Part shown: positions 27,241 to 62,367 of the stretch, in pieces | Layout: every line of letters starts with the position of its first letter | Numbering within the stretch: position 1 is the stretch's first letter | NCBI RefSeq assembly: GCF_964355755.1 | Contig: NC_092673.1 | Coordinates: forward strand, 2,418,001 to 2,482,000 | Source of the DNA: Antedon mediterranea | Taxonomy: Eukaryota > Animalia > Echinodermata | Reading direction: 5' to 3' | Length of the DNA: 64,000 bases | Translations under genes and position numbers: made by a program | Notes under the pieces: generated by a model | Seen by the model: the letters and a program-made list of their open reading frames with translations, nothing else | The model's database searches: none | What the model was told of the DNA's origin: nothing

Positions 27241-30200
27241 TTATACAGGAGGTGGTGGAGGGGAAGAAAGAGAAGATCTAGGCCTAATTTTGGGTTTTAT
27301 TTGTACCTGTGGCCTCCCGTTCGCAGGCTTTGGCAGTACCTTTGGCTTGTTAGCAATATTTGGAGGAGGGGGCCTAACAGGTGGAGGTGGTTTTATTGGT
27401 GAAATTGGCATATTTGCACTATTTGAGTTATTTGTATTAGGGTATGTAGGTTTTAATGCTGGCAGCTTAGGGGGAACCCGATTCCTCCAACTTGAATCGC
27501 CGTTTGATGTCCTAGGAGCTACACTCGGTTTTACAGAAGTTGATGGAGGAGGGTATGGTCGAACTGGAGTAACAGGCTTAACTACTCCTATCGGTTTCAG
27601 TGGAGGTGTAGGCTTGGGCGGCGTAGGCTTAGGCGGCGTAGGTTTAGGCGGTGTAGGCTTAGGTGGTGTAATTTTAGCCGGTGGAGGTTTTGATGGAGCC
27701 GGCCTAGCTGGTGCTGGTCTAACCGGTGCGAATTCAACTGTGGCTGTGGCAGGAGAAAAATTCATAGGGTAAGATGGTATATCAGTGGCGGAAGTACCTG
27801 AGGAATGTTTGGATGAGTATCCTGATGAATAACCTGAGTTGCCACCTGTATCTGAGTACGAACCCTGAGCCAACGGTACTTTGTGCTCAATCGACAAAGG
27901 CTGTCCTGGTGACGTGACTGGTTTACGCAGTTGCTTTGTATTGCTTGAAGGCTTAGGTCTTTTATAGTTCCTGGAACAGAGTTAAAAAAGAATTTAATGT
28001 ATAAAGAAATAACAAAATTTAAAATGATTGTAGAAATAAAAAATATAAAAAATAAGGTAAAAATAATTAGAACATTCATTCATTCTTTCATTTTTTCAAT
28101 AATAGAAAATAATATATTAAAAAATAAATAATAATATTATAACATTTAAGTAGTAGTAACAGCTAAATAATTAGTTCTCTTTTTATATGCGCAAAAGGCA
28201 GAAAAGTTTGAGGAACAGACACAAACAATCTTTTCATTTCTGCATTGACAAAGAAACAAGACTCACGCATTTCTATAGTTTTTCCATTTTGCAGCAATAA
28301 CCTCTCGTTTTATGTACGCTCCGGTTGCTAGGAGTCCAATGATGGGTAGAACTACAAGTAACATGACAATGATGATGACTGTGCTACTGCTTGAACCAGG
28401 CACTGCAATCAGAAAAAAAACAAACACTTGTTTGTTAATGAATAATGAGTATGGATAGTAACAAAAGCAATAACATGTTGTACATTCTTTTATGAAATAT
28501 TTTGATTTCAAAGATGAACAATTGCTTATATTAGTACAGTTAACTCTCCCAATACCAAACTTTCTGAAAACCAGGTAACTCTCCCAATACCAGACTTTTC
28601 TGGATGTCCAAAAGGTAACAAATTCATTTTTACCATTAAAAACACAAAGTTCCTTGAAAACCAGACAAATTTGGACAGCCCAAAAGTGTCCAGTATTTGG
28701 AGAGTTGACTGTATAAATAAAATAAATAAATTATCTTGGTTGAAAATTGTTCGTGTATATTTAATCATGTACTATACCACACTGTAGGTGGTAACATTAC
28801 AGTCAATAATATAATGAATAACTTTACTGCGATACACACAAAAAATAAAACTGGACTCCAAATATCAAATATCACAGAAAGAGTACAATGGCTCATTCAG
28901 AAGAACACAAAGTATAAAGCTCTCATGTCTACACTATCAAACTAGTTTAACAAAAAAGTTTGATGTGCCTTACTAAATATGGCAGTGATATGCTCAAATA
29001 TGGCAGTGATACTACATCATTATGTCCATATATGGGCACATCACATTTTTTTGTCACATAAAGTTTGATAAGTGTGGACAGAGCTTTACAGGAAGAGTAC
29101 AATGGCTCATTCAAAAGAACATATAATATAAATGCATTATGAATTATTAAAAATAATATTATTATAGTGAGCTGCATCATAGGACTAATTTAATTACTCA
29201 GGTCAATTAAATCAATTGCTATTAAACCATTGTACAAGATATATTGAATAAACACTGGTTTCATGCGTCACAACATATTTTGTTTGACATTGAAAATTAC
29301 TACAAAAATTAATATGTTTAGCCTAATTCACCAAGTTTCATTTTCAATTTATGAATATTAGCAACATTTTTAAGGTCTATGATTGTTTCAGCCGGCTATC
29401 ACAACAACAATTGACTTGTGAGCATGCTCAAACAATCTTTAGTGTACAGTGAGTCATGTGGTGTAATGGGTAGTGATACCCTAATAGTGCCATCAAGAAC
29501 AAAAAGAAAATATAGATATTTGAAGAAAAATAGAGTTAGGGTTAAGTATAAAATACATTAAAAAAAACCTTTATAATGATATTAATACAAACTTTCATGC
29601 AAATTGTGCAAAAATTTAAATATACACACAGTGCCTTGTATATTTTGTGTGATTTTATTAAATCAAAATATACACTTTTTCGTCAGCTTACTTTTATACC
29701 TATTCAAAGATTGTTATCAGAGAATTACAAAAAAAAATATGAAAGAGTGATTGGTTCGTTTTTTGAGTACCTTTTATGTCTACTTCATTAGTGACATTTA
29801 AAAAAATACCTGTTGTTTCTACTTCATTTGTAACAAAAGGAATGGAAGTGACTAGAAAAAAAAGATAAAGTATAAACTACAGTTAGACACAAATCTAATA
29901 TTAGTATTTATACAGGTAAAATTATACGGGTAAAAATATATTAGTTAAAATATTTCTATATAACTAATAGGAAATTTCTATATACTATATCTGGACCATT
30001 GAGCTTGTCGGCAATGACTTTAATAGTACGTCTTGTTTGTGATAGATAGAATGAAGAAAAGAAGATGCAAAAGAAAACAATAAAATTAAAATTAAACAAA
30101 AGTAATAAGATTACAGTAAAACATTCCAAATAAGGCAATAAGTAAAGTATACTTATGTATTATTACTATAATTCACTATGATTCAATTTTTTATATTTAA

Positions 30201-33200
30201 TTCAATACTTTTTTGACAGGCACAGAAAAATTCTAAAAACAAATTATTATTAAACTTTCAATCTAACTATGAATTGCTTTCTTTGAATTGTATACAACTT
30301 TATTTAAATTATATTACACATAATTAAAATTGTAAAGAATTAAAAAGCGGGATTATTATCAAGAATATAGCTGTACTGGTATTGTCCACACTACTGTCCA
30401 TACTGATTGCCTTCTAAGTTTTCTTAGATGCAGGGGCGACTGTAAAAAGGTGATTATCATAAAAGCGGATATATTTCCAACAATTTTATTCCAGTCTATC
30501 TTAAATACCAATGGTTTAATTTAAAGGAATTTATATATATTATTTATATATGCTGTACAACCACAGACTAGAAGGCTTTGCATTATTAGTATCCATAATG
30601 TATTATTTATGTATATGGTTAAATCTATATTTAGAATTCTTATTTCTAATATTATTTTTTCACAAATATTCTACAAACAATTATTATTAATATTAAAATT
30701 TATAATTAAAGTGTAGTATCATTACAGTTGTGTGAATTACAGTACTAAGTATAAAAAAATGCAATACACAAAAAAAACAACAAAAAATGCACATACAGAT
30801 GAGGTTATATACAGTAATGCACTTGAAATGGAATATGAAAATGCTTTAATAATATTATTACAAATGGCATATCCAAAGACATGAAGCAGTAGAGCATGTC
30901 AACCGACTGAGCATGATCACAGACCATTTGTGAGTTGTGATAGCTTTTGTAAACGTTCCAAATTTAACAGATGTTAAAGCTATAATAAAATTAACATCTA
31001 TTCAATTTCTTATTTATAAGTAAACAACATCATATTTTTGCTTTCTTTTTTATTGTAATTTTCAATGTCATTTGTAGTTTTTTGTGCGTAATTTTTTAAA
31101 CGTAATTTATTGTAAATAAGGACTTCTATTTTTGTACAGCGCTTTGGTCTCTGAGAAATATATAAATCACTATAATAAATAATATACCAAGTACAGAGAC
31201 ATGAGTAAAGAATATAAAATTATAATGTTATATTTTGCATTTTTTGTACTGAAAAAAAGTGTAAACTGGATAAAACCCCTAAACTGAATTCATATAATTA
31301 TAAGAAAACTAATATAAATATATAACAATAACATTCAAATATTAATAAAACATTCAGTTTACTGATGCAGTACTTTATAATGCACATTCACACAAGACAG
31401 ATAGTAATAAAATGAAATAAAACTGAAATTTAATATATAAATATAAAATAATAATCATTCTCAAGTTACTTTTTGTATAATAAAATGTATAGAAATAAAG
31501 TATTTTTATATAGTGTTAAAATGAATAAACATTTAAAGATTGAATTTCTTTTTAAATTGGGAGACATGAATAACAACATACTACAAAATCTGTGTATTTC
31601 CATAAATCAAATTGTGTTTTTTTTTGTCAAAGTTTGTCAATATTTGCTATACGACTGAAATGATTGAATGTTTAGACCTTTCGTTAATTTATAAATTGTT
31701 TCTTATTTTAATTTATTATTTGTTCAAATGTCATACACCCACTTCTAATTATAGTCAAGCAATCTTGCGTACGCTTGTAAGCTAATCTTTTCAGCAATGT
31801 ATCAGTGTAAACATATGTTTAGGTTTGCTTAAAAGAATATGTTTAGTGCACCAGTGGTTCTAAGTATTGATCAGTGTAAACACATGTTATATTTGGTTTA
31901 AACACTTAATTTTAAAGAATGAATATTCTGAGGTTTAAACTAAAAAATGTGCCTAATAATTGGTGAGGTAAAATTGAACATTATGTGGGTTTAGATTAAA
32001 TTTGATTATATAAATCTATTAGTTTATACTCATCAGCCATGGTACTCTTTTTGTGAGGATACTTTTTTAAGAAAGGTTACATAACTTTTGGGTGCTTTTA
32101 TAACTATGCCTTCTGTTTGTTAACATCTTTGATTGGCTAATTTGTTTTATTATGTCATTTTGTGACTTGTATATCTTATCCTTTGTTACAATTCTCTTCA
32201 CCTGATGATGGGCTATGCCTGAAACACGTCCTGTTAATAAATTTATATTGAAGTAGTTTTTTTTGTTTGATTTTGATTTTTTCTTCTACCCTGCCTATGC
32301 AGTTCTTTGATATATACATAATACTGTAACTGGATGATATGTTGTGAACAATACAAATATAAAAAATTGTCAATAATGGTCAACTTACTTGGTTCCGGAA
32401 GTCTTGCTGGGCCACTATCGATACTCCCACCATAGCCGGGATCTCTACAATTAGGAGGTCCCCACTCACTATCACAATGGCAGTTGTTATTACTGTTACA
32501 CACCTACAGGTGGATCATATATGGAATGTTTACTAAGTATAGTAGCTATACACACAATATAGATTTACTTGAAATTGTATGTTCAAATTTTAATAAAGTT
32601 CATTAATTAAAGATGTATTTGAAGATGAATGAAGATTAATAGATCATTTTGTAGTTTTATCACAGAAGAAACTTATAAAATGACAAAATAAACGGATAAA
32701 TTCAACCAAAAACCCACAAGTTGGCAGCCAATTTGACTATTTTTTGCTTTAAATTACAGTTTTTTTAGAATCCGATCCAATTTTTGGTCAAAGTGAATAG
32801 CTATTACATGACATTAAAATGGCATATTCAACAATACATCTTTAAACCTAATTAACTGTGAATGTTTAAATTATCAAATTGATGTGTTAATTTGAATATA
32901 TTTATTTATATGATATGTATTTACCCCACGTCCATAGCAATTTTTATTGCACGGTTTGATTCCAAGGTCAGTTAGGTTCTTGCACTGGAAATTACTGCAA
33001 ATCTGTAGATAAAATACACATATACAAATTAAGAAATTGGTTGAAATACGTTGATTTTCTGTCAATTTATACAGAGTAACATAAATAATAATAAGTAACA
33101 AAGCTGTTTGGCCATACCAAAAATAACAGAAACAATAAGAAGAATACTGTCTTCGCAATACAGAAGAGGTCATTGCAGATGTTCTGCTGTGGCAGACAAA

Positions 33201-36200
33201 ACATAGACTTGCAAAACAAGGAGACAGATACTGGTATGCAGAGAGAAGAACTGGCTGTCACAATGGCAGATAGGAAGTTATGGAGGAATCTAGTCATATA
33301 AGTTTGGGTATGTCCCGGAACAAGTAAGTAATATAACTAATTGAAAGAATCAGAAGACTTAACTTTCCCAACCAGTTCATTTTTCTTATAGAATAGGCTT
33401 CATCAAGACACTGAGCTCGCCTTACCAAGATAGGAACACGTAACAGTCCTTTGATCTTATGTCTAGCAGCGACAAATACCAACAGTACTGTACTGTCGCA
33501 GCCAGAGATAAACCCTTTGATCAGCGAAGCTCAGTATCCTGTTGTTAGATAGCCTTGACTTCATTAAGACATTTGCAAGCAGACCTTTTTTCGCTAAGCA
33601 TGTTTGATAAATTTGACTCAAGTTCCTAAATTTGTTTCATAATAATAATATAACCTGCATTGTACTCACTGAATTAGGACCGCACGGTGCTCCATCGACA
33701 ACGAGCCCGGGGTCAGGAACATCTTCGCCAAAATCAACTGATGCTACTTTACATTCGTGTTGGTTGAAGTTTTCATCGTACGTATTCAGAACCTGTGATC
33801 GCACCAATGAGCCGATGATTGGGTAGGTAGGACCGCCCTCACAGAATAGCTTTCCACACATGATATCTCTGTACAAAGCAAGAAAATTACCTTTTGTATT
33901 TTGAACTTTATTTTGTTCAGTGAAAATAATTTTTTTTAAATTTTTAGTAATGACTGAAATAACTTTCTGCAAATGTAAGTTTTTAAATATTTTTTTTATG
34001 AATGAAATGTTTGATAAGATGAAATATTAATATAATTGTATCACATATTAAAACCGAGTAGAACTCCTATTAAGACACAGCTTCCGGACCTAAAAAAGTC
34101 ACCTCTTAATGTGCGTCACCTGAATAGTGGTTTACTGTAGTTTTAAATCATACTCGTCACTCGTTTTACAGAAACATGTCCCCTTCATAGGATTGTCCAA
34201 AAGGGGTTCTACAAAATATTCATAAATTTACGCACTATATAATAATTTTCATGCACACCAGTAGCATGCAGAAGTCATCAATTAACTACTTTCTACACTA
34301 TTTATGTAACAAATAAAATCACATCAAACAAATCAAAGATGGCGATGAAAGATCGTATTAGTTGTAAATGTAATTTCAGTCATTAATTTTATGAATATTC
34401 ATATATACATAAATTAATAACCACCAGTCATTAAAATGAATTCAAACATATGTTAATGGTAAACACACTTGAACAAGAATTGATGTGATATGATTTTTGC
34501 ATCTATAAATGTACTGATTTTGAATAATTTTTCTGTTTCGCGAAAATAAATATGGCAACTATTTTAATTTAAGTCTTTTTTTGCATGCAACAATTTTATA
34601 TAACATGCATCTATTGCTACATAATCTAAAGCATTCAATGGTCTAATACAGTGCTATATGCACTCGGTGTATAATATACAAATAATGAATGTTTATGAGT
34701 GCAATGGTACAAATAATGGCACGAGGTGAATGATGAAAGGTTATATCAACTCGGCTTTGCCTCGTTGATATAACCTTTCATCATTCACCTCGTGCCATTA
34801 TTTGTACCATTACACGAATACAAAACATTCATTATTTGTTTTATATAACATCTAAATAACAAACAAAAATGTTTCAAAAAGTACTATTTAACGATCGTTG
34901 AATAGTGCGTACTATTGCACGCCATGTGACCCACATTCGTCCAATCAAATGACAGGAATTTATATAGGTGTTATATAATATGCATTATTTAACAAAAAAA
35001 CAATATGCACACATATGCTTAATGCATGGTTTTATTTAAAAAGGAATTTTAAATTTCGGGAAGGAAACCAAAGAATATCAAAACGAGTAGAGCATTTAAA
35101 ATCACACGCTCACAAACCAGTCAATGTTCTGATAGTACCTGTATCTGTGTAATTTATTGTTATTTGTACTGTAATGTATTTAGTAGTATAATCCTATATT
35201 TTCATACAGAGCCCCTAGTACTATATTCTGTGATATACTGTAGTTGTGTATTACCATAGATATGGTATGGTATTACATAGATTGGTATCACATAGATTGG
35301 TATTACATTATTTAGTATTGGTATTTACATAGATTGGTATTACATAGATTGGTATTACATAGATTGGTATTACATTATTTAGTATTGGTATTTACATAGA
35401 TTGGTATTACATAGATTGGTATTACATAGATTGGTATTACATAGATTGGTATTACATAGATTGGTATTACATTATTTAGTATTGGTTTATTTAGTATTGG
35501 TATTACATAGATTGGTATTACATAGATTGGTATTACATTATTTAGTATTGGTATTTACATAGATTGGTATTACATAGATTGGTATTACATAGATTGGTAT
35601 TACATAGATTGGTATTACATAGATTGGTATTACATAGATTGGTATTACATTATTTAGTATTGGTTTATTTAGTATTGGTATTACATAGATTGGTATTACA
35701 TAGATTGGTATTACATAGATTGGTATTACATAGATTGGTATTACATAGATTGGTATTACATAGATTGGTATTACATAGATTGGTATTACATTATTTAGTA
35801 TTGGTTTATTTAGTATTGGTATTTACATAGATTGGTATTACATAGATTGGTATTACATTATTTAGTATTGGTATTTACATAGATTGGTATTTACATAGAT
35901 TGGTATTACATAGATTGGTATTACATAGATTGGTATTACATAGATTGGTATTACATACATAGATTGGTTTGTATATTAACATAAGCAAACTTTAGTTATG
36001 CTCTATCGGTTCACTAACCTTTGGTATAGTGACATCATGGAGCTTTAAATTAACTTCATTCATTTGATTTTTAAATGACTATGACACACAGTATAACAAT
36101 GAGTATATTGCATGACTATTTTTGTTTTAAACAGAACAAGAATTAACAAATAGCTGAAATACTACATGGAAATAGGGTTATATAGTCTGCCTTAGAGGGA

Positions 36201-39200
36201 GGGTTAGATGTTAAGGTCCATGATCAATTGATGTTAAGGAGAAATTTGACGATGTTGAGAACAATTTGATGAAATCAAGTGTTTCTTTCCATATATAATA
36301 CCCTATAGATGTTTTATTGAGATTATGTCATGCATGAATGAATTTCCAAGTAGTCCACAAATACATATATAAATTAAAATTTGGAATACAAATTTATTCC
36401 AAGTGTCAAATCTATAGCTACTCTATCAACAACACAAACGCTGAATTTTTTTCCTTTTCATTAATTTAAAAGTAATGACTTAATATTAAAACCGCTTTAA
36501 AAAACCTACCAATGAAATGAAAGACTTCATTTTAAACATGTTTAAAATGTTTACCACTAATCAAGATTCTGAATTAGCAATTAAACCATGAATAATCTCA
36601 GTACATGACATTTACCTGAACTAATGACTCATAACGTTGATATAGGAAGAGTTGGAGACATACCAACGACAAATATGGGTTTTTTATTAGATGGAATATT
36701 CCTGTACACGTGTGTATAAACAAGGGCTCACAAAATAATCCGTAGCGAGAGATTATAAACAGATGACACAAAGTTATTGCAGGGGAATTGGGGTTGGTAG
36801 TAAAAATTGAAAATTACAGCCTCATGCTGGCTAGGGCCCTGCATATGCAATTAATATTACATTGCAACATTTTCTAGGAGTAGATTTGTGTTGAGAATTG
36901 ATTATTTATTGGTCTAGCAGTCTCAATACAAAGCACAGTTAAGATTGGCTAGGAGCGTAAAAGGAAACAAGAGTCATAGATTAATGTTTGGATTTCTATA
37001 CTTAGATAAGTGGAAGGTTGTCGACTGGACATATTTTTAAAATTAGTGAATATATTATTAAAGTTGATTAATAAATCTGACAAAAATACAACCTATTAAA
37101 ACATTCAGTGTTATTGTAATATGTGCTTTATTTGAGACAATATTATAATATTAATATTATCCACAAAAATTAGAAAACTAATACTGTTGTATTCAATATA
37201 TTTCTTTGAAGCGAATCGTCTAATAGTGGATTGTTAGGGAGAGAAAGCAACAAAAGCCGACACATAAAAGCGTTGTATACAGGATGATTAGAATCGGTGG
37301 TGGCGCTATTCATCTACAAAAGCCGAGAATTCTTCACAACTTACTTTTGGGCACATCTCACAATTACATCCCCTTTTATTCCACAATTGGCATTATCAAT
37401 TCCATCTTTATTATTTTCAAAGCATTGATATATACCAGCTGTCGATTCTGCACAATATATAAATAATGGTAAAAAATCAACATTTTTAATATTCACATAT
37501 ATTTATACAGTCAACTCCATCAAAACCGGAAACCTTTGATGAATTTTAATCGAATGAATTCTGAAGCTCTGTCTACACTATCAAACTTAATGCGACAAAA
37601 AAATGTGATATATGGACATGATGATGTCTACCATATTTGGGGATATCACGCCACCATAAATGGGCACATCACAATTTTGTTGTCAACCTAGTTTGATAGT
37701 GCATACAGAACCTAAACCATGTTACTAGGAAACAATGCATTATGGGAAGTCCAAATAATTCCAGTTTTCACAGAGTTGACTGTATATCAACTGTTTCTTC
37801 CCTATCCTAGACTTACTTTTTAGCACATTTAATGTATGTTTCGTCGTCGCCGTTTTTCACTGCACCACAATTTCCTCGAAATAATCCATTTGTATTGAAA
37901 TCATAGCATTTGTAATATGCTTGTTTTGATACTGTAAGGTAGGCAGGCATTTGTTTAAATAAACAGTAGTCAATAAATAGTATTAAAAAAGACGTCATAC
38001 ACAGCTTACAATGATAATAATTGTATTATAACATAAGCTTACAATGATAAAAATTGTATTATAACATACGAATAATAATAAACCAAAATTGAGCCTACAA
38101 AAAAGTTTTTTAGGCTAAAAAAAAAAGGAAATAATTGAAAAATGGTTTTCTTTGATAAAGAAAAATATAGTTAACACAATATCCTATTAAACAAGAATAA
38201 CCAAAAAAATCTAGATTGCTAACAAATCGAACTTTGAACTTTGAGAAGCACACTCCTATCTGCCGTGTTTATCAAGCAGAAGGTGCCGGGTTCGAATCTC
38301 TGTTGAGGTGACTTTTTTTCATTCTCAAAGATTTCCTCATCTTATCGTTTCAAATAAATTATTAAAATTTTCAGTATATTGCTGGGCAGTTTAGAATTAA
38401 TGTTCTATGCCTAATGTGTTTATATATATTTATATAAATGTGGGTTAAATGTGACTCACCGTCTCCCCATAAGGTCTTACACATGTTGTTATATGTGATA
38501 CATTGGCCATCATAACATGTAGCATCCTTCTGGTTCATGCAGCTATCACCATTCTGTATGTAGACATTCGATGGACACTGCAACACACAAAACATTTACT
38601 AAGTATGGCACATATTCAAGTGAAGCTGGGAGACCTCGCATACATATAATAGGAAGCTTTCAATTTCTGACGATTGTTTGTTATTGTGTCATTGAGCATT
38701 TCTCAAAGTCCCAGCTTGCAAACAATGAATTAAAATGACATAACTAGTACATACTAGGACCCTTAAGCATCAAACATTTTTGTGCACATTTGTCTATATA
38801 CGAACAGCATGACTTAACATCCCATTCGAAGGACGAGGCAAGAGTAAAAGATGCTACAAAAACAATTACTTACATCTTCCGATTTACCCGTACAATATTC
38901 CGGCAGGTCACACTCGTTGACCTGTGGTCGACAGAGTTCTGCAGGTGGTTTAATCTGACAGTTGTCGCAGCATTCTCCAATAGCGCATGTAGCGTTTTCA
39001 TGAAGCATACAGATCTCTGGTACGCAGCAAGGGTTGTTACAGTACTAAATGAAAAATATTTCTTTAAGCCAATATGCCTAAATATGGTAATTATATGACA
39101 TCATCATGTCAATGTATGGGCACATCACATTTTATTTTCACTTAAAATTTAATAGTGTAGACATAGCTTTAAAGGAGCTTTTAAAAGAATGGAAAAATAG

Positions 39201-42200
39201 TGCACTATCAAGGGAATTTAATTTGTATACTAAATACTTTTAATGTTTTTGCTTATCTCTTAAAATATAGGAATGTATATGTGTTTGACTGATTGATAAA
39301 AGAAGGGTTGGATGTTCCAGAAAATGCTGAGATATGTGCAGAGACATTCACCATGGAAAGAGGAAGCCAAGGATGGAGTTGCCTGACATGAGGAAGAAAA
39401 TAAAGTGAGAGGTTTATGGATGGTAGAGGAAAAAGAGAAAACAAATATTAACTTAACAAATAATTCTATCATACCTCAACGGAACCACAATCACACTCCT
39501 CTCCCTTCTCCACATAGCCATTTCCACAGATTGGTCCATCAAAGATTTCCTTAGGATAGTTGAAGAGGCAAGAGGCTAGGCCCTTCCCTAGGGAAGTCTT
39601 GAGGTATTCCTTAGTACACTCTGACCAAACAGTAGGAGGCACTGATCTGTAAATTAGATCACACGTTTTTGTTACAAGTAAACCACTCAATCTATCAGTG
39701 TAAAAAACCTTTCAATTTCATTTTTGGGCCTTCTTTTTAATGTGTGGCAGTGCACTCACTTCCAAAATGCCTTCGAATTGTGCCATTTACATGCAATATG
39801 TTGGTGAAATGCATGATGGGATAACTTAACGTCACCAGTATGAATTTTGTATATTCATTTTAAAAGCATCAGTTTTCCCAATGCTAGTGGTTCATAAGCA
39901 TGAGCACAACCCACATATTATAATTCAGTTATTATTTTATATTTGTGATACTTGTTAAAAATAAAGTTTTTTATGTGACTAATAAAACTGTAAAGAAGAC
40001 ATTTAATTACATGAAAATAGAAAATGTAAAAACATATAAACATTTAACTGAACATTTCTACAATAAAATTAACAATTAAAATAGCAGTAAAATGTATTAT
40101 ATAGCCTGTAGCAAAGCAGGTTTTGCCTAAAACATGATAAAAACAAATTAACGGTCACATTCCTCTTAACTTGTAATACACATGGTGCAACCTTGTACAC
40201 ACTCAAGATAACCCTTTAATTTTAGGTAGAATTCCATAAGTTATGTGGATCGGGTCAAAGGTTAAACAAACCAATAAAAACAAGGGACCCAATTGGATAG
40301 ACGGGTAGGCTGTAGTGAGTTAAAATCAAATTAAAAAAATGATAACTGTTATTATTTTAGAAGAAATGTTAAAGAAGGGATTTAGGAAAATGTTATTAGA
40401 GTAATAAATAATTAACTAATTTAATGAGATACAATAGTGTTATACAATAAGTAGACTTAAAATGCACTAGTAATAGAATAGAAAACAAAACACAAAACTA
40501 AATATAGTACAGGATTTACAGTGAATGTGACAGGGACAGGAGAAACTAATTATATTAATAGTATTAATACTGTTAATAAAGAGAGGTTAAAAATTAAAAC
40601 ATGACCTTTTTAAACTGGATCTCATGCATACATAATTTTTAATATAATTTCCATTGGGAAATAAATATATGATTCCCTATTTTGTCAGATTATGGTCAAA
40701 TAATAATCTTTGTCAAACAAACAAGGAGAATTTTAACATTACTGCCTATGAACCGTTTAGCCCCAAAGGTGTCCCTTTAATAGAGGTATGTATGTTGGTT
40801 TTTAAATATGATTTTCATTCTAATACATAGCTTTAAATATTTGCCACTCCTATATGTATATCTTGAAAACAAAAGGGCTGGAGTATAAGATAAAACACAA
40901 CATAAACAAAAACACGCTATTGTATTAATACTAAAGAAAAACAACGGAAAGAAGCGGAACACCAAACAGGGAAGTTTTAACAGGCAGATGTTAGTCAGCC
41001 CTTACCCCGCCGAGGGTCCCATGACACACCCCGTGGGTGCGTCACACTGGCACCCAGAAGCATCATGGTAGAACCCTAGGTTGTGCCCCATTTCATGAGA
41101 CATGGTTGATGCTACGCCTGCTGGGTCGGTGGCGTGGTCCTGTGAAATACATACAGTAATGTTATGCGTTAAGTTTAGTAGTAAGTATTATTATTTTAAT
41201 ATCTAATAAACAATTGTGATGAATTGCACTTCCTTCCGCTAGAATCTGAATCATTTCAGACTTGCAATCTTTAAATATAAAAATTGCTTTTAAACACAAA
41301 GTGTAATTTATTTCCATTTCAATTTGTTTGGGCAATATTGTCACGTGCCCATGTATGGAAGTGATATACCCAAATATGGTAGTGATATGACATCATTATG
41401 TTAATATATGGGCACATCACATTTTCATATAAAGTTTGATAGTGTAGACAGAGCTTTAGCCAACCAAGTAGACATAGTCATAGAACAATTCTGGTAGGAA
41501 ATTACGATCCATTACAATTGTTTATTTCAGTAATCTAAAAGCCTTACGATGCCACTGGTCCCATGATACAATCAATATTTTCAGCTTCCTCTGCACATTC
41601 ACATGTTGCTTCATCGTGATAAAAGCCCAGATTATGACCCATCTCGTGGCACATAGTGGAAGCTACGCCTGCTGCCTCCTCAGAGTGGTCCTAGTGGTCG
41701 TTATGGTGCAAAAGACCGCAGAGTATGGTAACATTTTGATATGTAATTGTTATACAACAGTTACGTTACAGAATACATTAAAATAGGCAATTATGTAGTC
41801 AATGCTTGTGACAGAATAAAGAAGATATGATGATGTCATTGATGATGTTAATGATGATGATGATGTCAATGATGATGTCAATGATGATGATGAAAGAGGA
41901 AGATGGCGATGATGATGATGTCAATGATGATGATGTCAATGATGATGATGATGTCAATGATGATAATGAAAGAGGAAGATGGCAATGGTGATTTAAATGA
42001 TGTTTTACTGTAAATATGAACACACTCAAGACACCAATCGTAATGCTGATGATGAAAATAATAAATAATGGGATGATGACAAGAGAAAGATGATGATGAT
42101 TAAAATGATAGTACTGTAAACATGAACACATACAATTTTGATGATGAAAATAATAATGATGATAATGATGATAAAAGAGGAAAATGATGATGATGACGAA

Positions 42201-45200
42201 AGAGGAAAATGATGATAAAAAAAGGAAAATGATGATGATGATGATGAAAGAGGAAAATGATGATGATGATGATGATGAAAGAGGAAAATGATGATGATGA
42301 TGATGATGAAAGAGGAATGGTGATGATGATGAAAGAGGAATGGTGATGAATAAAGTAATGACGAGGATAATGATGATGAAAGAGGAAAATGATGATGATG
42401 AAAGAGGAATGGTGATGAATAAAGTAATGACGAGGATAATGATGATGAAAGAGGAAAATGATGATGATGATGATGATGAATAAAGTAATGACGAGGATAA
42501 TGATGATGAAAGAGGAAAACTGTGATGATTAAAGAGGAATGGTGATGAATAAATGATGAGGAAAATGATGATGAAAGAGGAAAATGATGATGAAAGAGGA
42601 AAATGATGATGATGATGATGAAAGAGGAATGGTGATGAATAAAGTAATGACGAGGATAATAATGAGGATGAAAGAGGAAAATGATGATGATGAAAGAAGT
42701 GATGTTAATGATATACACCCTAAAACATACCTCATTGACTCCAGCTGACTTTGCTATAGAACACATTGAACCAAGGGACGCCATACCAACAGTACTACCC
42801 TCAAATGTTCGGCCACTATAAAGACAAAAATAATATATAATATTATCAAGTGTTTAAATCCTAAAACACACCTTGACTATTGGGTTTAATATTTTGTAGA
42901 AAAAAAATATTCTGATTTTTCATAAAGAATAATATAGAATTACTGTACAGTCAAATCTTGAAAAATTACAAACGCTCCCAAAACCAGATTTTTTTTTCTT
43001 TTTACCACAAAAAAAATGGCATACCAGAATTTGTGGAAAAACCAGACAACTCAGCCCTAGGATGCCTGGTATTGAGTTCAATGTATAATTGTTATTATAT
43101 CATTTGGTGGTTAGGGAGTGGAGTATGGTAGAATGAAAAATTATCAATTTCAAAGAAACAAATGAAGACTTGTACAAGAACAAATACATTGATCACATAC
43201 GTCATAAATTGAGCGTTATCATTCGGATGTTTTAAGTTATCTTTTCTCCACGCCTGAAATGCTCCCATCGTTTTAGCTGCATCTTCGTCAAAGATTATCT
43301 GATCTCCTTCGTTCCACACTGTGACGCTGGTGAGAGCAACTCGTATATTCAATGGCTTATACGTCTGTAAAATCAATTTGAAATAACACAGGATGTTCAG
43401 GAAAAGTAATACAAAAATATGCATATAAAAGTCAAATGAACAAGCTAATATTAACATGTGTAATTTCAATAACTACCCTGGAGACATATACTCTGGTATT
43501 AAAAACTACATTACATTTAAAAAGGGGAGTGCACAGTACTGTAGGCTGAAATTATTTATCTCATGCATACTCTAATCTCTTGGTGCCTATATAATATATT
43601 AACTGCATATTTTTTTCGCAAGTATTGTCAATGTACTTAGTATAAAGTACAAATTATGTCAGAGTAGGGCAAAACATCTGACCAATTACGGAAAATAAAG
43701 TTTGAAATATTGAATCATAATTGTTTACTTCACGTTTAAAAAAATATCTTATAATATCTATTCGCAATATGTGGGAATAGAAGATATTAAAAATAAGTCG
43801 GGATGGTTAAATAACAATTAGTAATTCTAATTAATTAATTAAAAATTATTATATTATTTTAAAAAAAGTATAAAGCAAGTCATCCTAAGGTCACTCATAA
43901 GCGTTGGTCTTTAGAGGCCAAGAAAATGTAAAACTATTAAACCATCAGGTTAGGCAACTTACAACATCCATTATGTTGGCAACTTTCTTACACCGTTCCT
44001 CTGTGCTCTGAACACTTCCCAGGGAAGTGAACTACAGGATAAAAAACAGACATTTACAGTTAGATTCAATCAATTTTACCTTATAAGGAATTTCATATAC
44101 TTTCTAAATAAGTTTTCTCTTTGTGTCATACTCATGTTGGGTTTCTCTTTCAAATTAAGAAACAAAAGAAGAAGCACTTTCTAATAATAATTCTGTTTTT
44201 CTTCATGTAGTATTAATGAAAGCTTATCCCGTTTGTAAATTATATTCATTGTTTGCCACTTATATATAAGCTTAGAATAAACAGAACGACTCAAGTAGGA
44301 CTTGTTTAATACACTGATGCATATTTGCATGTTGTTGAACAATATTTAACATCTGTAGGTAGACAATACGATACTATCATCAAACCACATAATTATTAAG
44401 TTCATTAAGAAAAGATGAGTACTTCAGGATTTGATTTTGTAAGCATTCTCACTACAGAATATCACCGTATGATTGATATATGCTAAGCATAGAAGACAAA
44501 AGGTAGTTTATGCACTTCATGTCATTAGCATCAAACAAATAGAAACGACTAATAAGACAGACTTGCTAACTGTCCAACCTCTATTAAAGCTCTGTCTACA
44601 CTATCAAACTTTATGTGACCAAAAAAATGTGATGTGCCCATATGGACATGATGATGTCATATTACTACCATATTTGGGCACATCACACTTTTTTCATCAA
44701 ACTAGTTTGATACTGATAGTGTCTTCTGAATTCAAAAATTTATAGTACCTCTGCATTATCAGCAACTATTGCAAGTTCAATAAACTTTGTCTCAGTAAAT
44801 GCATCTCTTTTCTGGCGACGAGGTAGCGTTTGTAGTATTTCTAGATGTTCTTCATGTTCTGGACGTTTAAATATCTCAGTATCATCTGAAAAAAACACAA
44901 ACAATGATCTTTATCTATTTTTTAAATTTATAATTTAATGACATGCTTCATTAATTTAAAAATTAATTTCACACGATTTAAAAAGTACACAACTTAACCA
45001 ATTTCCTCTAATTTTACGATGACAAAGAATAGTTGATTGAGAAAGAGGATAAAGTCAAATAAAATGATGGCAAAAAAATGCAAAGAGAAAAAAACAACAG
45101 CCAGAAAAGACAGGTTATTACCCCACATGCAAATGCCTAATCAGCTATCTCCATTAATATTCAAATATTCATAACATTATTTACCAATAAATTTCTTCTT

Positions 45201-48200
45201 TAATTGAACATCTTCTGGTTTGTAAATTAGATGATCAGTTGTCGAATCCTTGAACGGCTCAATATAAAATGTCTCAAAATCAACAACAAATATACCACTA
45301 TGGGAAAAAAAAACTTGATATTAGAAGTATTTGAGGATTTGATAGCTTTTACCAAGACTCATGTTACCTGAGGACAAGACTGCTATAGGTTTAACTGTAC
45401 TATGTCATGAATTAAAAAAATTATATGTTGTAAGCCGTTCAACGCAACGCAAACACAACGCAATGACAACGTGTTGAATGCGTTGGGATTTTTGCAATAA
45501 TTCTGTCCTGTAGTGTACTTTAAAACTGGGGGCAAGAAACACAAGGGCCAAGAAACACAAGGGCCTAGCTGGGCCTCAAAATTGTAAAATGATTATTACT
45601 TATTACATACAGATTATTTTTGGTTATTTATTCCAATATTACGACAGTTACTTAAAATATAAATATTAACATGATAGTGAAATACAAAAAAAACCACTCG
45701 TACCTCAAAAAGTAAATGCTGTCTGAATGCTAATGTAACAAATACATTAACATTACAGCATAGAATAACATTAGCAAATGTTATTAGCATACCTTATTCC
45801 TGAACATGTATCTATAGCAACAGTTGATGAATTGCTGTCTCGTACAGTACCATGATAATAACAGTGATGCTGAAAAATATATATATATAAATAAGTTAAA
45901 AAATAAATAAAAATATAAAAAATTAAGATGCCATTATAAAAATACATTTTCAAATGGAATTAATCAAAATGAATCAATGGGAAAAATTGTCATTTTCAAA
46001 TTTAAATAATACAATAAGTAGAAGGATGCTAACACCGAAAATCGAGCCTTTCTTTAAAATAGGGAGCACAAAGAAAACGGGGACTTGGAGGGTGAAAGTT
46101 TGTGCTGACCAATTGTTAGGGTTGCTACAGTACAGTATGTATGCAATAAACCACATAATAGCAAGTATCAATCATTTTTTTGGTTGTTCTTTTTTAAGAT
46201 CTACTCATAACTCCTCATTACGCTTCCTGTCATGTTTTCCTTTTGGTTCCTCAGGGTCTAAGTCATCAAATTTAATATTAAATTCTATTACCATAATTTT
46301 ATTATGAACTACTGTAATACTAATATTAATAGCACTAAATTATGTTCATTTTACATACCTTATTGTTTAAGCGTGGTTCCCACTAGCGACGCAACGCAAG
46401 GACGTAACGCAACGCAAGTGAATTGACCAATCACAAGCGATGGCTTATTCGCTTGTGATTGCTAACTTTCTATAACTTCGCTTGTCATTGGTTAAAACGC
46501 TTGCGTTGCGTTTACGTCCTTGCGTTACGTTCTAGTGGGAACCAAGCTTTAGGGAGGGGTTGGGTGGGGGAGGGATAAGGAGGAGAGAGGTGGGTGTAGC
46601 AGCTTGAAGGCCAATTTACATAGACGAGCAGTAAAACAGTAAAAAAAAAAAAATAAATAAATAAATATATAGAATCATAGATACAAATTTTTAGGATTCT
46701 AATTAAATAGTGAAATGATTTCTTTTCCTTATAAAATCAATTTCACGACATATAAGAAGTAGGTTAAATTAACAAAATTATATTACGGAAATAACCTTGA
46801 CAAATAACACCATACTTAATTTCATGATCACAATATAACCATTAATTTTTATTTAATAAATCATTTATTATTCAACGATCAGTTACTTTGAAGAAAGAAT
46901 TCTGAATTCTTTCACAGAAGTCTGCTTGATGATGTAATACATTAGCCAATCAATAATCAATGTAAATAGTTGCAACCTGTTTCCATGGTGATTTGGGAGT
47001 TTCAATATTTAAAGTAAACAGAGAATACTGTAAGGAGTGTAAGGGCCTGTTTGTATTTAGCAAGAAAGAATGATAATGAAAACATTTCTTCTGGTTTCGA
47101 TTCGTATAATGATTATAAGAAGGAATGATATTTGAAAATGGGTCCTTTTTATAATCTTATTTCGATGGTTAAAACCGGAAAGAAGAGAAGGAGAAACAGT
47201 TTCCAAGAAGCAATATTTAGCTGCAACGCAATCATGGTTTTAACTTGACATCACTGCAAAAGGTCACTGAAAGGTCCGAAAATTTGAATACTGTTTGTGG
47301 GTCACCAAATAAGAAAGTTTTATTTTGAGTAAACAATTTGATATTCAGTTTGTGACATTAACAAACAACTGGTTTCGAAAAAAAAAAAAACTGTTCATAA
47401 AATATCCAAGACGACTTTTCTGGTCGGTAGTACTGTATACCATAACAAACTATACAGTAGTAAGGAGATAAACATAGGTCAAAATTGCAGAAAACAATTT
47501 GCCTTAAACATTAATTAATAATTATGATTTCATAATAGTATATTCTTCTTATTAAGCCATAATTTTTGTAAAAATAGCGCATTTAATGAGCCTACTGTAG
47601 ACTCCCCTGGTAAACCAAACATTTCAAAATCAAGGCCAAAACATGGCATTTAAATCACAGTATACACATTGGAAACAAGCTATTTCCTTTCATCTTCCTC
47701 ATGAGCTGGCCATACACGGATGACCTCTTTAGAGTTCAACAAATAATTCCGCATGTTTTTGTGCAATTGACATTTTTATTCGTTTCCAGTGATTGAATCT
47801 AAAACATAAAATATATACAGAAAGTCTACAACAATAACGATAACATAACATGAAGATGAAAAGTTGTTGATAATAAAACTATGTGTAGACTATCAGTATT
47901 CAAACTTTACAATGTGTGTAGATGTTTGTGTTTGTTAAACCTGTAACACAGTCTATTGAATTGTAACAGTTAAATCTATTACAATGCTTAATACAATTCC
48001 TCTGCAAGTTTCAGTCTTGAAAATAACCTTGAAAATATAATCATTTTCCAAAAAGTTGCAAATAATACAAGCAATACAGGTAGTTGTACAATATTTCATA
48101 ACAGACAAGAAAGAAAAAATGTTTCAGTCTAATTGTCGAAATAGGTTAAGAAATAGTTATAAATTTAAAGTGTACAACCTTTTAGCCATTCATTTGGTAA

Positions 48201-51200
48201 AAAGGTTATACTTTATTAAAACTTGTCTTAAGAAGTGGCTTCTACTAATCTTTTGTTAATTCAGACTTATGGTGTTGTATGCTGGGTGCTGCGTAGGTCT
48301 GAACAGGCCCTAGTATTGATATAATTTAGAGATTTGAAGAGAGATTTATAAATTCAAGCCAGCTGTTCTGAAACAACTTTATTTCCCTGGAGACATCCAG
48401 GGAACATTGTATCTAACACCTCATTTTCTAGCAGCCGCGTCATTTCCTTTCAAATTTTGTCTATTATTTCACTTCATCAGTAGGGATGCACAATTACTGA
48501 ACGGCACCCTTATCATTTCAAATATCTAGTGGTATCTTGTCCTCTATTCTATAAAGCTTAGATAGATAAGACTGCTTCTGACAAATCAATGATTTAGCAT
48601 TTTGTTCAGTGACTATTGGTATGATTATTATGGCACCTTTCCATAAATGCATTTGATTGTATAGACTATAAAGAATAGGCAATGCAGACAATACTGTTGG
48701 CATAGCTACAGTACTGTAAACAAACTATAAAATGTTTAAAGAAGGGCTTGACAATTGATTCATCACATTACTAAGTTTTTAAAAAAGGGCACTGAGCATG
48801 GTACGGCATTCCACCAATCCATACCTATCATACAAGAGGATTTCCACAGATCCCATATCACACTTTCTGATTTGAATGCAGTGGCGATGCTATAAGTGCT
48901 TACTGGCTAAACCCACCAGCTTATGGGAGGGGGGGGGGGGGAGCAGTCTCCAGAGGAAAAAAACAGGCATTAAAATATGTTGAAAGGGCCAAAAACACTC
49001 GAGGCCCCATTGTTGGAGGGTCACTTAAGGTTACTAAACCAAGACCTCAGGCCTCTGAGTTATGTCACAGTCAGGTGATTTTTCTGGTTCCATTGTCCAC
49101 ATTACTATTTCTAATCACCTGGATACAGTTTTACTTTTAGTAGGTCCTTCAGTTGTATGTACATATTGGGACATGATATAAATAGTAAATGTGGTCAAAA
49201 TTGAGAGGATGAGCTCACCAACCACACAATAGTCATTATATCAGGCAGGAAGTCTTTACTTGCAGCCTCTTCCAGGGTTTCAATGGCAGGTAATGGTAAA
49301 TGGCCTCTAAATTGAGCATTGGTTGCGAACTACTAAAGCGTCATAGTTTAGAATGGTTTAATGGCCTCTAAATTGAAAGTCAATGCATTGGTGGATGACT
49401 ACTGTAGCCTCAATTAAGAAAGTTAGTAGAATTAGTTGATTACTGTATCCTGGTAAAGCTCTGTCTACACTATCAAACTTTATGTAATGTGCCTATATAT
49501 GGACATATCACTACCATATTTGGGCATATCACACTTTTTTGTCAAAAATGTTTGATAGTGTAGTTTTAAACAAATTATTGGACCTGCATCTTCATGATCT
49601 GAATGAATGAAGGACAAAACAAATGAAATGCTTACCTTAGAATGTGGCTTATTAACTACCCTTTGTTCATTCGGTAAATAGCTTATTACAACATAATTTT
49701 CAGGAAAAAGATTTCTATAAAAAAAGAAATTAAAAATATATAATTTTTGTTTATCTATGTATATTTTTAAGACCAATAACTGTTTGTCTAAAATCGAATC
49801 AACTTTAAAATTATAATTTTTGTTCAAAATTTTTAAAGCACTTGTGCTTATTTTCCCATTCCATTATTTTATAATTCTTTATTATTTTATTTTATGGGCT
49901 TTGATTACATTTTGATGTACTGTACACATTATTAAAATATATAAAAGGTCTGTTATACACATCACAGACACAGAATATTGTATATAAGGTCTGTTTACAC
50001 AGAATATATACATTCCCTTGTATTATTAAAATTAAAACAACATTTTAGAAAATCCTTCATTTTTGCTTGTCACATGCAAGTGAAACAAGTGAAGCATATT
50101 TGTGATTATTATTAAAATGCATTCTTATTGTATATTGTATAAATGTTTTTATTTTGATCTTGGGATAAAAATGAATGAATAATACAGAAAACAATTACAG
50201 ATTTGGTATTGAAAAACAATATGAATCACTCAAATATAGTTCAACAATACAAAATTAGCATAATTTACTGAATTCATATTCATAATGCAAACCTTATGGG
50301 CAATCAAATTATACCAACAATAACTATAGTAGGCAGGTCCAGTGTTAATATTTATGAGATACAGTAACTGTAAATTATCTATAGGAACAGACTTCCTGAC
50401 GCTCTCAACAAATATGAGATAATTCCACAGAGAAACAAAGCAATATAAAAACTGGAATATGTTATATGACTCAAAGAAAGTAATAGTTTGGCTGAAACTA
50501 AGAGCACAATAGAAATTTAATAATTAATTTATTTTTAAAATAGGTTGAAATTAATAGCAACCCAAATATAGATATTTTGTATGGATATTTATTGAAATTC
50601 ATTTATTTATAGTTTATTGTTTGTGAGAACCGACTTTTTTGTGTGATTATTCAGCAGAAAAACTCAATCTCAATTAAATAATGTTGTGTTAGAATAACGT
50701 CCTATATATCAGGAAAGTTGTGTAATCGGAGGTAATATACTTGAAAACCTCAATTCAAGATCCTTAACCAAGAATAAAGGTTGAAGATCCTTAACCGAGA
50801 TTAACGGTTGACACTGTATACGTGCAAGTTTTAAAGATAAAAAAAATATGCTAAATAATGGATAACTTTAATCTCTTTCAGTATGCCTGTTTAATGATGT
50901 TGTTTAATGTAGTGTATACCATTCCATACGCCGCTGCATGTGGTAGATAGTCCCTATCTAATCCATTTTATTTAAACCCATCATGAAAGCTCTAGGTGTA
51001 ATGGTACCATATCAAGCAGAAGATTTCCTGTTTGAATCTTGGTTGAGGTGGCTTTTCCTCATTCTTACAGATTTCCTCATCTTAAAATTGTGTATAGTTT
51101 TTAGCCTATAATATTAGAAATTATTCAGTACAGTTCAATTTATACCTAATTTTACTTTCTATGGACCAGAGATTCTAAAATAAAAGATTTAATTTAATTT

Positions 51201-54200
51201 TTTAACTTCATTATAACATTAACTATTATATTAATAAAGGTAAATTTATAGAAGGCGTTTTTTAATGAATAGATCTGTTAATATTTCGGTTGAGTTAATG
51301 GGCAGAGACCTAGTAATCTCTCTATGTCTTACTTATTATGTCAAAAGAGATGGATGTTGAAATTAAAATTTGTTATTTGCTCGATATATAAAATATAGGT
51401 TATAATATCGAAATAATAACAATATAACATTTTTCCTTTCATACAATTCTGATAACGATAGGATTGAGTTCAAAATGCTATTGTCTAAGTATGTAAAAAG
51501 GGATGGATGGCTTGGGGTTTTAATTAATTTTCTAATTATCTATTTGCCCGAAATAAAATATATGTTTGTTATCGAAATGAACAATATAAAATGATTTTTC
51601 CTTTTATACAATTCTGATAACGATAAGATTGAGTTCAACCGAAGAATGACTCATCAATGTTTTTAATGGTGTATGAATAATGCTACATTTCCCTATAAGG
51701 CGGCTATCATAAAATTCTACCATTGTGCATTTTAAAATGCTCGGATATTGTTACCCAATATATTTCCATCTTTATATTCAAACGTCCAATCAAACAATAC
51801 ACGAATCCTTGACTTGTGGTGTCGGAAGATCTACTTCCTGAGTAGAAGCCTCTTAATCCGAAATAATGTACTGTACCCCATGAGGTGTTTACACAGCACA
51901 CCTGTGTTGAAATTTAAGAGGTTTTAAGGAAGAGTACCAGGTACGCATGGTACCGAAATGGGTAGGAGTAGGCCTGCTGTGGGGTTTGCTGACTCATCAT
52001 AAATTGGGGTAATATATATAGATGATGAAAAGCCTACATGACATCTAAGAAAATCCAATCAAGTGAATGTTAAAGTTCATTGTATATAGCTCTGTCTACA
52101 CTATCAAAATAGTTTGACAAAAAAAGTGTGATGTGCCCAAATATGGTAGTGATATGCCCAAATATGGTAGTGATATGACATCATCATGTCCATATATGGG
52201 CAAATCACATTTTTTTTAAAGTTTGATAGTGTAGACAGAGCTTAAAGAACACCATTTAAAATCCCATAAAACATACACTACAGTAATATAAAATGTCCTA
52301 CAAAAAAAGTAATATCTAAATTAATTTCTAGAGTTGCAATTATGGTTGTTAATTTGTCAATTCATAGTTTAGTTTGCTGTACAGTACATAAATAGGCTAA
52401 TTTGATGTCAAATTTCAGCATTCCGAAATACTGAATGTGTCATGTGAGGCTTATGACGTGATCCAGTAACAGTGTAGTGTGGGAGCATACCTATGTATAA
52501 TATTTGAATAAATCAAAATTGATTTTCGAAAATTTGAAGAAATTCGTTGGATAAATTCTTGTGACCTACTAAATGAGGCAGAAATAAACGGAAAGCAGCT
52601 TTCCTATCAAAATCACTTTCACTTAATATTAAATAGAAAATTATACACAGGAATTATAGGTCTGCCATGACGTGTGATAATATAAATTTAATAAGCACCT
52701 GGACATTTCTAATTTTGCTACTGTTTGGTAAGGTCTGTTTTGTAATGATAATACAGGTTCAAGTCTCCTAATACCAGACACCCCTGGCCTGACTGTGACA
52801 GGATGTGTCTGGCTTTTCAGCAATTCTGGTTCAGATTGTGTTTTTTATGGTAAAGAATTTAACCTCAAGTGTGGTTCTGTGAAAGTTTCTGGGTTTTCAG
52901 TGAGCCTGGTATTGGGAGATCCAATTTCAACGGCAATATAGACCCCATTTACACTTACGTTTGGGTCCAGAGCCGGTCCTGGACCGGTTGCAAATATTTA
53001 CCTTTTAGGCCGGCCCCAGAGCGTTTACACTAGCGACGCAGATTACTGGTTGTAAATAATTTTATCGGAAGTACCATTGCATGCTGGGATACGAAGTACA
53101 GTTTGTTCACATTTTTCTCTCTCGATCGTCAATTCAACGCGCAAACCGACCGTTTTATATTTATACTGTATTGTTGTTTTTTGTCCCATTAAAAACAAAT
53201 TGAACCCCACTGTTTTATATATAATAATAATATGGCTGTATTTTATGTATATGCGAAACAAGCGGAGGAATACTTTATTGAAAGAAGATGTCTGAAAATA
53301 AATTTAACTATATAAATGATGAAGGAAACAAATTGTCATACAAAGGTATGATGTACTGAGAATGTCGGATCGTCATAACAACAACCTCATAAAAAGGTCA
53401 AACGTTGTTCACGGTTCACTGCGTAAGCCGGCCCAAACGTAAAAGCCGCTCCTGAACCTACCTGGAGAGGTGGCCCAGATCTGCGTCCGGCCCAGGGCCG
53501 GCCTAACTTTTTGGAGTATTTACACTTATCAATTGCCGACCCAGGGCCGGCCTAAATCGTAAGTGTAAATGGGGTCATAGATATAGTATACCATGAAAAC
53601 TGGCAATACAACACAAATTGTATTAGCTTTAGGTGATAAATTTTAACTTTAACACTAACAGTGCTAATGTGGACTACACTACAGTTAAGCTCTGTCTACA
53701 CTATCAAACCAGTTTGACAAAAAATGTGATGTGCCCAAGTATGGTAGTGACATGCACAAATATGGTAGTGATATGACATCATCATGTCCATATATGGGCG
53801 CATCTCATTTTATTGTCACTATAGTTTGATCATGTAACTTATTTCTCCATGGTTTGATAGTGTAGATAGATAGTGTAGCGATAGTCACATAGATTCTACC
53901 AATTATACACAGTTAGTCAAAGATAATTAAAAATGTTTTTTTTTTTGTAGATTTGGACATGGTTGGTATTTTGTAGGTGAAAGACATTCAAGAGTTCATA
54001 TTTGAATACTTTAATAAATCTAATTCAATATTATATAGTACAGGTAACTTTCAATGGCAGAAAGGTGTGTAACCGGAAGCATTTGATCTTCCTGTATTTA
54101 ATCTAATCTAAATAAACTGAGGATTGAAATTTTTTTAAATTCAAATATTTTGAGATTCTAAAACGAGAACGTTTGGATGGATGTACAGTATAAGAAATTT

Positions 54201-56047: not shown

Positions 56048-56148
56048 CTATGAAAAATATAAAAGAAACAAATAATATGTTTAGTTAAATATTTAAAAAA
56101 AATAGTGTTGCCAGCCTGTAAAAAATGCTGCACCTACAGTACAGTAGT

Positions 56149-56350
56149 TAAGCTTGGTTCCCACTAGCGATGCAATTTAACAAAACCTACAAAACGTAAG
56201 AAAATGCCCTTCCAATAATTATGTTTGCCCCCGCCTGCGTGAAATCAAACCTGCAATGTCTGTCTGCAGCATTGTTGCGTCGTCGGCTCCCACTTGTGAT
56301 TACGCAATACAACACTTATTGTGTTGCGTTCTAGTGGGAACCACACTTTA
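56149..56350. mobile_element. MITE family 2 copy
   Basis: Same TIRs and same internal tgtttgcccccgcctgcgtgaaatcaaacct as 1552-1743. Confidence 0.75.
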
Positions 56351-60730: not shown

Positions 60731-61049
60731 CACGTTCACTGCCACGGCGTATTTATACTGTACGTCAAAAATTGCGTGTCGCTACTTGCCAAGACGTAAT
60801 ACTACGTCAAAATCGTAGCACTTTTGTATTGTATGTAGAATCGCTGGCAGTGGTGATTGGAACAGGAATTATCGCATGGCAGTTTATGAATGATGTACGT
60901 AAACGATAATCTAAAAATAAATGTCATATGTTTGTTTGTGTTTATTCCCTCATGCATTGAATATGGCGCCCTCACACTCAATATAATCATCTCAAACGGG
61001 ACTTGGCACTGGGACAGAAATTACGGAAAATGCCTTGGCAGTCAATGTG
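60731..61049. mobile_element. piggyBac-like MITE
   Basis: TTAA|cacgttcactgcca ... tggcagtcaatgtg|TTAA. Confidence 0.7.
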
Positions 61050-62145: not shown

Positions 62146-62367
62146 GGGGATAAATTGGGGATAAATTGGGGATAAATATGGAATATGGGATAAACAGGGG
62201 ATAAATACTACTGTATATGGGATAAATAGGGGATAAATATTGGATAAATACTAGGGGATGAATAGAGGATAAATAGAATAGGAGGATAAATAGAATAGGA
62301 GGATAAATAGGAGATAAATATTGGATAAATAGGAGATAAATATGGGATAAATAGGGGATAAATAGGG
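62146..62367. repeat. Degenerate repeat of about 10 bp (ggggataaat)
   Basis: Repeated ggataaat cores. Confidence 0.8.

Follow-up and report, generated by a model that had tools for sequence, protein, structure and literature searches.

Two short, similar exons lie next to each other in a protease gene of the crinoid Antedon mediterranea, and the locus raises the question of whether a working mRNA carries only one of them and what their exchange would do to the protein. We analysed the window, a stretch of 64 kb, which holds an ADAM12-like gene on the minus strand. Our reading, to which we assign a probability of about 0.72, is that the exons, named C1 and C2 here, are duplicated versions of one exon, that a working mRNA likely contains one of them, and that the choice swaps a predicted loop (the V-loop) of the cysteine-rich domain, likely altering the partners or substrates of the protein.

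The gene and the place of the two exons

Isoform X1 protein (P0004) was placed exon by exon with tblastn, and the matches ran from 63773 to 27244. The first coding exon lies outside the window, and residues 26-1017 are encoded inside. The features needed for the main argument are as follows.

27244..63773, minus strand: ADAM12-like gene, coding exons for residues 26-1017 (tblastn of isoform X1 protein; RefSeq XP_071946871-4)
38460..38577, minus strand: 118-nt shared exon upstream, in which the cysteine-rich domain starts (Pfam ADAM_CR E=3.8e-6, under the curated cut-off; joint 38460>37931)
37817..37931, minus strand: 115-nt alternative exon C1 (3n+1, phase 1-2), which encodes residues 534-572 of RefSeq isoform X1; in the structure model it is predicted to form the V-loop, with a longer hairpin than in C2
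37345..37447, minus strand: 103-nt alternative exon C2 (3n+1, phase 1-2), shorter than C1 by four residues, with Ala in place of Gly before N-C-G in both crinoids compared here (in RefSeq isoform X3 of either species, P0006 for Antedon and P0002 for Anneissia; structure model)
33670..33868, minus strand: shared downstream exon, 199 nt, probably containing the hypervariable region (Pfam ADAM_CR E=6e-4, under the curated cut-off)

The protein consists of a prodomain, a reprolysin domain with HExxHxxGxxH, a disintegrin, a cysteine-rich and an EGF-like domain, a transmembrane helix and a proline-rich tail. This is the domain order of a membrane ADAM, and together with the intact zinc motif it places the protein among the ADAMs (M12B) and predicts that it is catalytically competent. 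The ADAM12/19/33-like membrane ADAMs, including a sea urchin ADAM (NP_999635) and ADAM12-like proteins of sea stars, have the same order. The RefSeq name of the Antedon protein refers to a venom enzyme, which we regard as an automatic label since the protein has a transmembrane helix and a proline-rich tail. Exon 33868-33670 is 100% identical to the Antedon RefSeq protein and 80% identical to the ADAM12-like protein of another crinoid, Anneissia japonica.

Full proteins run against the window with tblastn found a single locus per exon. No third copy of C1 or C2 was among the matches listed when the exons themselves were used, a weak search in which the C1 query did not list even C2. One could suppose that an assembly or haplotype artefact produced the two exons, or that they belong to different paralogous genes, as no contig among those listed spans both and the contigs break at a repeat near 37586. 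We consider this hardly credible: the two peptides are only 39% identical and their flanks are unrelated, C2 stands in intronic context in contigs of two studies, the window contains a single copy of each shared exon, and in a second crinoid family one annotated gene has isoforms of either version. Elsewhere in the window there is a tandem satellite of 4 kb at 17333-21439, with units of 89, 196 and 285 nt, and further tandem arrays are found at 35268-35957, 41827-42690 and 62772-63350.

Each exon fits the reading frame singly

The coordinates, peptides, CAG acceptors, AA/GTAAGT donors and phase 1-2 given for both exons in the preliminary description were all reproduced. The peptides are homologous by their global BLOSUM62 score of 59, which none of 5000 shuffles attained (mean -11.2, sd 8.8), and the exons are adjacent, with 369 nt of intron between them. 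They share phase and compatible splice sites, and the frame between 38577-38460 and 33868-33670 stays open with either C1 or C2, as had been proposed. Joining both exons leads to a TGA at codon 10 of C2, in agreement with the earlier estimate of a stop within about ten codons, and skipping both leads to a TGA 27 codons into exon 33868-33670. Thus, both or neither shifts the frame to a premature stop, and nonsense-mediated decay would be expected to clear such mRNAs.

Transcripts and predicted isoforms

The RNA evidence comes from contigs of one run, X1, which contains RNA because its contig carries GT-AG spliced joints. A single 464-letter contig joins 39044-38874, 38577-38460 and 37931-37817, and then enters 33868 with a loose end of 30 letters at 37817 that equals 33839-33868. 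With the joint 38460>37931 on its other side, C1 is therefore spliced on both sides and C2 is skipped. Of the junctions by which the preliminary description proposed to check the pair, 38460>37931 and 37817>33868 were thus seen; no C2 junction and no spliced C2 contig was found among the contigs listed for this one run, where 37345>33868 lay outside the stretches compared. In run X1, C2 is covered by one unspliced contig only (36491-37587). Since contigs lose rare variants and this is a single run, we do not take the missing spliced C2 as evidence against its use. Unspliced X1 contigs as a group span C2 and the start of the next intron (36088-37587), and may represent pre-mRNA, intron retention or DNA carry-over.

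The RefSeq predicted isoforms of Antedon contain C1 in three of four cases and C2 in one, and those of Anneissia japonica contain the C1 counterpart in six of seven and the C2 counterpart in one; none of these 11 crinoid isoforms contains both. The isoforms are automatic RefSeq predictions that existed before this analysis. C1 is therefore joined to both neighbours in the X1 contig, and C2 through the predicted isoforms of two species only. A productive mRNA with both exons was found neither in the frame analysis, where the join runs into the stop, nor among the predictions. The claim of mutually exclusive use is thus backed by predicted isoforms in two crinoid families, by a C1 contig that skips C2 and by the incompatible frames, with the use of C2 probable from the predicted isoforms and its conservation in two families. 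All seven Anneissia isoforms (P0002, P0007-P0012) stop at 710-759 residues, before the transmembrane helix and the tail, which would make them soluble forms unless the gene model is truncated.

Conservation and origin of the pair

Antedon and Anneissia belong to different families of Comatulida (Antedonidae and Comatulidae), and at the protein level both exons have counterparts in Anneissia japonica; conservation in sister species had been proposed as a check. Between the two species, C1 is identical at 24 of 39 residues and C2 at 21 of 35, whereas the four cross pairs of C1 with C2 are identical at 12-16 of 36 (14 of 36 within Antedon). Eleven other exon blocks are 68-86% identical. From the figures for C1 and C2, we conclude that C2 is constrained as a protein about as much as C1. 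The preliminary description had named the lack of C2 or C1 in transcripts together with a lack of conservation as the outcome that would speak against it; a C1 transcript was found and both exons are kept in Anneissia.

Exon trees were built from alignments of 36-38 columns only. In a tree of 19 rows, C1 grouped with C1 (89/96) and C2 with C2 (97/99), and a tree uniting the two Antedon exons could not be rejected (p-AU 0.316). With six more rows (25), C2 again grouped with C2 (92/91), C1 was not a single clade, and the four crinoid exons formed one group (94/89) that was absent from the 19-row tree (p-AU 0.353). Because the alignments are short and the p-AU of 0.316 leaves the species-wise grouping standing, the argument for an older duplication is carried by the pairwise identities, on which the duplication appears older than the split of Antedonidae and Comatulidae.

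We compared 21 groups of non-crinoid proteins, taken from sea stars, a brittle star, urchins, sea cucumbers, hemichordates, amphioxus, a coelacanth and a beetle, and none had two versions of the segment in one gene; four of the groups had a single member, and three partial proteins were without a match. The pair therefore likely arose in crinoids, as judged from annotated proteins rather than genomes. A profile search of representatives found no crinoid sequence beyond P0002 (Anneissia) that is closely like C1 or C2. Sequences of other echinoderms score nearer to C1 than to C2, and at a position that is Gly in 59 of 60 other ADAMs, C2 has Ala in both crinoids. C2 thus looks like the derived copy.

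The preliminary description had proposed a scaffold common to the two exons. The three Cys, the helix Asn, the Gly that follows it and N-C-G are shared by the four crinoid exons and nearly all of the 60 other ADAMs, so this part of the scaffold stood, and so did the statement that C1 and C2 each retain all three Cys; the letters of 'Y-x-C' and 'CA' are not retained in Anneissia. The diverging residues of C1 and C2, which had been described as lying on the surface, probably do so, judging by their position in the loop.

These comparisons bear on the idea that C2 is a relic or a poison exon, rarely used alone and acting, if at all, by joining after C1 and sending the mRNA to decay. The stop created when C2 follows C1 is what such an exon would produce, C2 is in only one isoform per species, and it sits on a long branch. 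Its protein is conserved in the productive frame like that of C1 (60% vs 62%), however, which a poison role does not need, and C2 keeps its three cysteines, and the gene models of both species include it without C1. We therefore regard this explanation as very unlikely, and continue with the reading of two exon versions that each serve a working mRNA.

The exchanged segment is a predicted V-loop

To see what the exchanged segment encodes, isoforms P0006 (with C2) and P0004 (with C1) were modelled with AlphaFold, each with a 62-row alignment. Residues 531-570 have a pLDDT of 90-97 in both models, so both variants are predicted to fold confidently; a structure prediction of both had been proposed as a check. 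In either model there is a short strand, a helix at 540-548 and hairpin loops, the last hairpin being longer in C1. The best structural match of both models is ADAM22, with a whole-chain rmsd of about 8.5; because this value is high, the arrangement of domains in the models is unreliable. A search of solved structures with the exon peptides alone returned chance matches only.

In section 3.4 of a 2016 structural review (PMC4885070), the V-loop is defined as a segment of 27 residues that runs from strand S1 to strand S4 and contains a helix in its centre and two hairpin loops. The predicted secondary structure and the alignment with ADAM22 and VAP1 show these features of a group-A V-loop (about 27 residues, a helix and two hairpins), suggesting that the alternative exon corresponds to S1, V-loop and S4, with approximate borders. 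The segment had been placed just before the hypervariable region, and by the definition, the models and the alignment this placement holds, the segment being the V-loop. On the assumption that residue 609 is the last of chain 2dw0 (419 residues), the hypervariable region would begin in the shared downstream exon, some 10 residues after this segment. Either form is predicted to keep the three cysteines and the helix while the sequence of the loop and the length of the hairpin differ.

Whether the exchange alters what the protease recognizes is less direct. A role of the swapped loop in substrate or partner choice is suggested by analogy: the specificity of ADAM13 in vivo is set by its cysteine-rich domain, a result from chimeras (PMC2173380), the cysteine-rich domain of ADAM12 binds syndecans and thereby supports adhesion (PMC2174829), V-loops of ADAMTS13 form exosites whose mutation reduces substrate cleavage (PMC4885070), and homologous mutually exclusive exons tend to alter surface residues near functional sites (PMC7954323). 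The step from these cases to a loop that serves as a binding surface and gives the isoforms different specificities has, in our estimate, about even odds.

A real either-or switch could also leave the choice of substrate unchanged, altering adhesion, trafficking, stability or little at all, with each exon tied to its own tissue pattern. Section 3.4 of the same review states that there is no clear evidence for the V-loop or the hypervariable region as an exosite in ADAMs, the binding of syndecans by ADAM12 can be read as adhesion, and the differences in net charge (+2 and -1 for C1, -2 and 0 for C2 in the two species) are small and inconsistent between species. Each exon retains its own residues in two families, on the other hand, and the loops of ADAMTS13 do form exosites, though they are of the short group-B type. 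We consider this alternative rather unlikely and favor a loop exchange that affects partners or substrates. The loss of Gly in C2 could, for its part, weaken the loop rather than retune it.

How one exon may be chosen

The intron between the exons contains repeats that might be thought to enforce the choice.

37448..37816, minus strand: intron between C1 and C2, 369 nt, GT-AG
37504..37786, no strand assigned: MITE-like element (a tentative family label) with TA ends and terminal inverted repeats of 35 nt, predicted to form a long RNA hairpin (z=-5.7, 0/100 shuffles); second copy near 28535-28713
37564..37709, no strand assigned: high-copy repeat nested in the MITE-like element, with more than ten copies in the window

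The linear sequence gives no support to steric exclusion: the branch-like motifs, at 64, 30, 23 and 13 nt upstream of the C2 acceptor, are more than 300 nt away from the C1 donor, and the threshold given for steric interference is less than 50 nt from donor to branch point (PMC5740500). The predicted hairpin of 37504-37786 leaves 30 and 56 nt of the intron outside, and if it collapses the intron, the distance from the C1 donor to a branch-like motif would be about 55 nt or more, near the 50-nt threshold. A regulatory role of this hairpin was not adopted, as it consists of pairing transposon-like ends; since similar repeats are common in the window, we regard it as incidental. Within 36000-38600, where RNA pairings for a Dscam-type docking/selector mechanism would be sought, most of the inverted repeats are such transposon-like ends, and the copy at 28535-28713 has TA-flanked inverted ends like those of the intron element. 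The length of the AG-exclusion zone was discarded as a mark of the alternative exons, since the zones of four alternative acceptors measure 61-112 nt and those of 16 others 14-157 nt (20 of the 22 acceptors).

We suppose that ordinary splicing regulation chooses one exon. Among human clusters of mutually exclusive exons, 377 (60%) have exon lengths that are no multiple of three, the commonest class, and reads that join the exons are found in 83 of these 377 frame-incompatible clusters (PMC5740500). Frame alone therefore does not imply strict exclusion at the splicing step.

A second exon pair at the active site

The same gene has a second pair of alternatives upstream.

41548..41690, minus strand: zinc-binding (HExxH) exon Na, 143 nt (3n+2); a loose end at 39646 matches its 3' end
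41006..41139, minus strand: 134-nt zinc-binding exon Nb (3n+2), which shows spliced loose ends at 41141 and 39647

Na and Nb each carry the zinc motif, are incompatible in frame when joined, and both have spliced ends in run X1. Their counterparts in Anneissia are identical at 39 of 49 and 35 of 46 residues. With C1 and C2, these exons give one gene with alternatives at both the active site and the V-loop. The predicted isoforms show the combinations Na+C1, Nb+C1 and Na+C2, and no Nb+C2 in either species. Automatic gene models need not list every exon combination, and we therefore draw no inference on a coupling of the two choices. The derived exon is Na, which sits on a long branch (98/99 support) and has an extra Cys just before HExxH in both species; Nb resembles the single exon of other echinoderms. 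The high-copy repeat nested in the element at 37504-37786 also occurs between Na and Nb.

Comparison with known systems

The pair shares with known homologous mutually exclusive exons (PMC8373072, PMC5740500, PMC7954323) adjacency, phase, similar length, the likely use of one exon per mRNA, a fold predicted to be preserved and lengths that are no multiple of three. The splicing mechanism is of the ordinary, textbook kind and no different here; what sets this case apart is its gene and lineage, and that one protease ectodomain has two such pairs. The nearest case in the same protein family is a duplicated exon pair of human ADAM23, an event of the same type and the only ADAM gene among the human catalogue rows matching 'ADAM' in the supplement of PMC8373072. 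That pair encodes a 30-residue hydrophobic, membrane-spanning-like segment, whereas the Antedon pair lies in the extracellular cysteine-rich domain and is accompanied by the zinc-motif pair. ADAMTS13, with its V-loop exosites, has the same ADAM_CR fold and the same named loop; the ADAMTS V-loops are short (group B), whereas that of Antedon is of the long group-A type, for which the review gives no exosite role (PMC4885070). The ADAM12/19/33-like relatives have one version of the segment per gene in all 21 non-crinoid groups, the sea cucumbers having two genes instead. A literature search, which covered few subscription journals, found no paper on the Antedon gene or on such a pair in the cysteine-rich domain of an ADAM.

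The locus bears on how ADAM sheddases select their substrates. It is possible, although we are doubtful, that feather stars have a two-by-two switchboard in which the choice of active-site exon is combined with the choice of V-loop exosite, giving up to four protease specificities under the control of tissue or stage. If true, this would be natural evidence for the long V-loop of membrane ADAMs as a site of specificity, in contrast with the sea cucumbers, where the whole gene was duplicated. As two naturally selected V-loops occur on an otherwise identical protein, the exosite idea could be tested without engineered mutants that possibly misfold, and the two active-site segments in the same gene add to this natural test of substrate choice. 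In the sea cucumbers, Apostichopus (P0095/P0096) and Holothuria (P0093/P0094) each have two ADAM12-like genes that differ in both segments; within each species, the contigs given for the two genes are equally long.

A further variable segment lies downstream in the stalk.

29772..29851, minus strand: short juxtamembrane stalk exon, left out of Antedon isoform X4

At the same site, directly after the EGF-like domain, optional stalk segments are found in isoforms of Strongylocentrotus, Lytechinus, Acanthaster, Ptychodera, Glandiceps and Anneissia.
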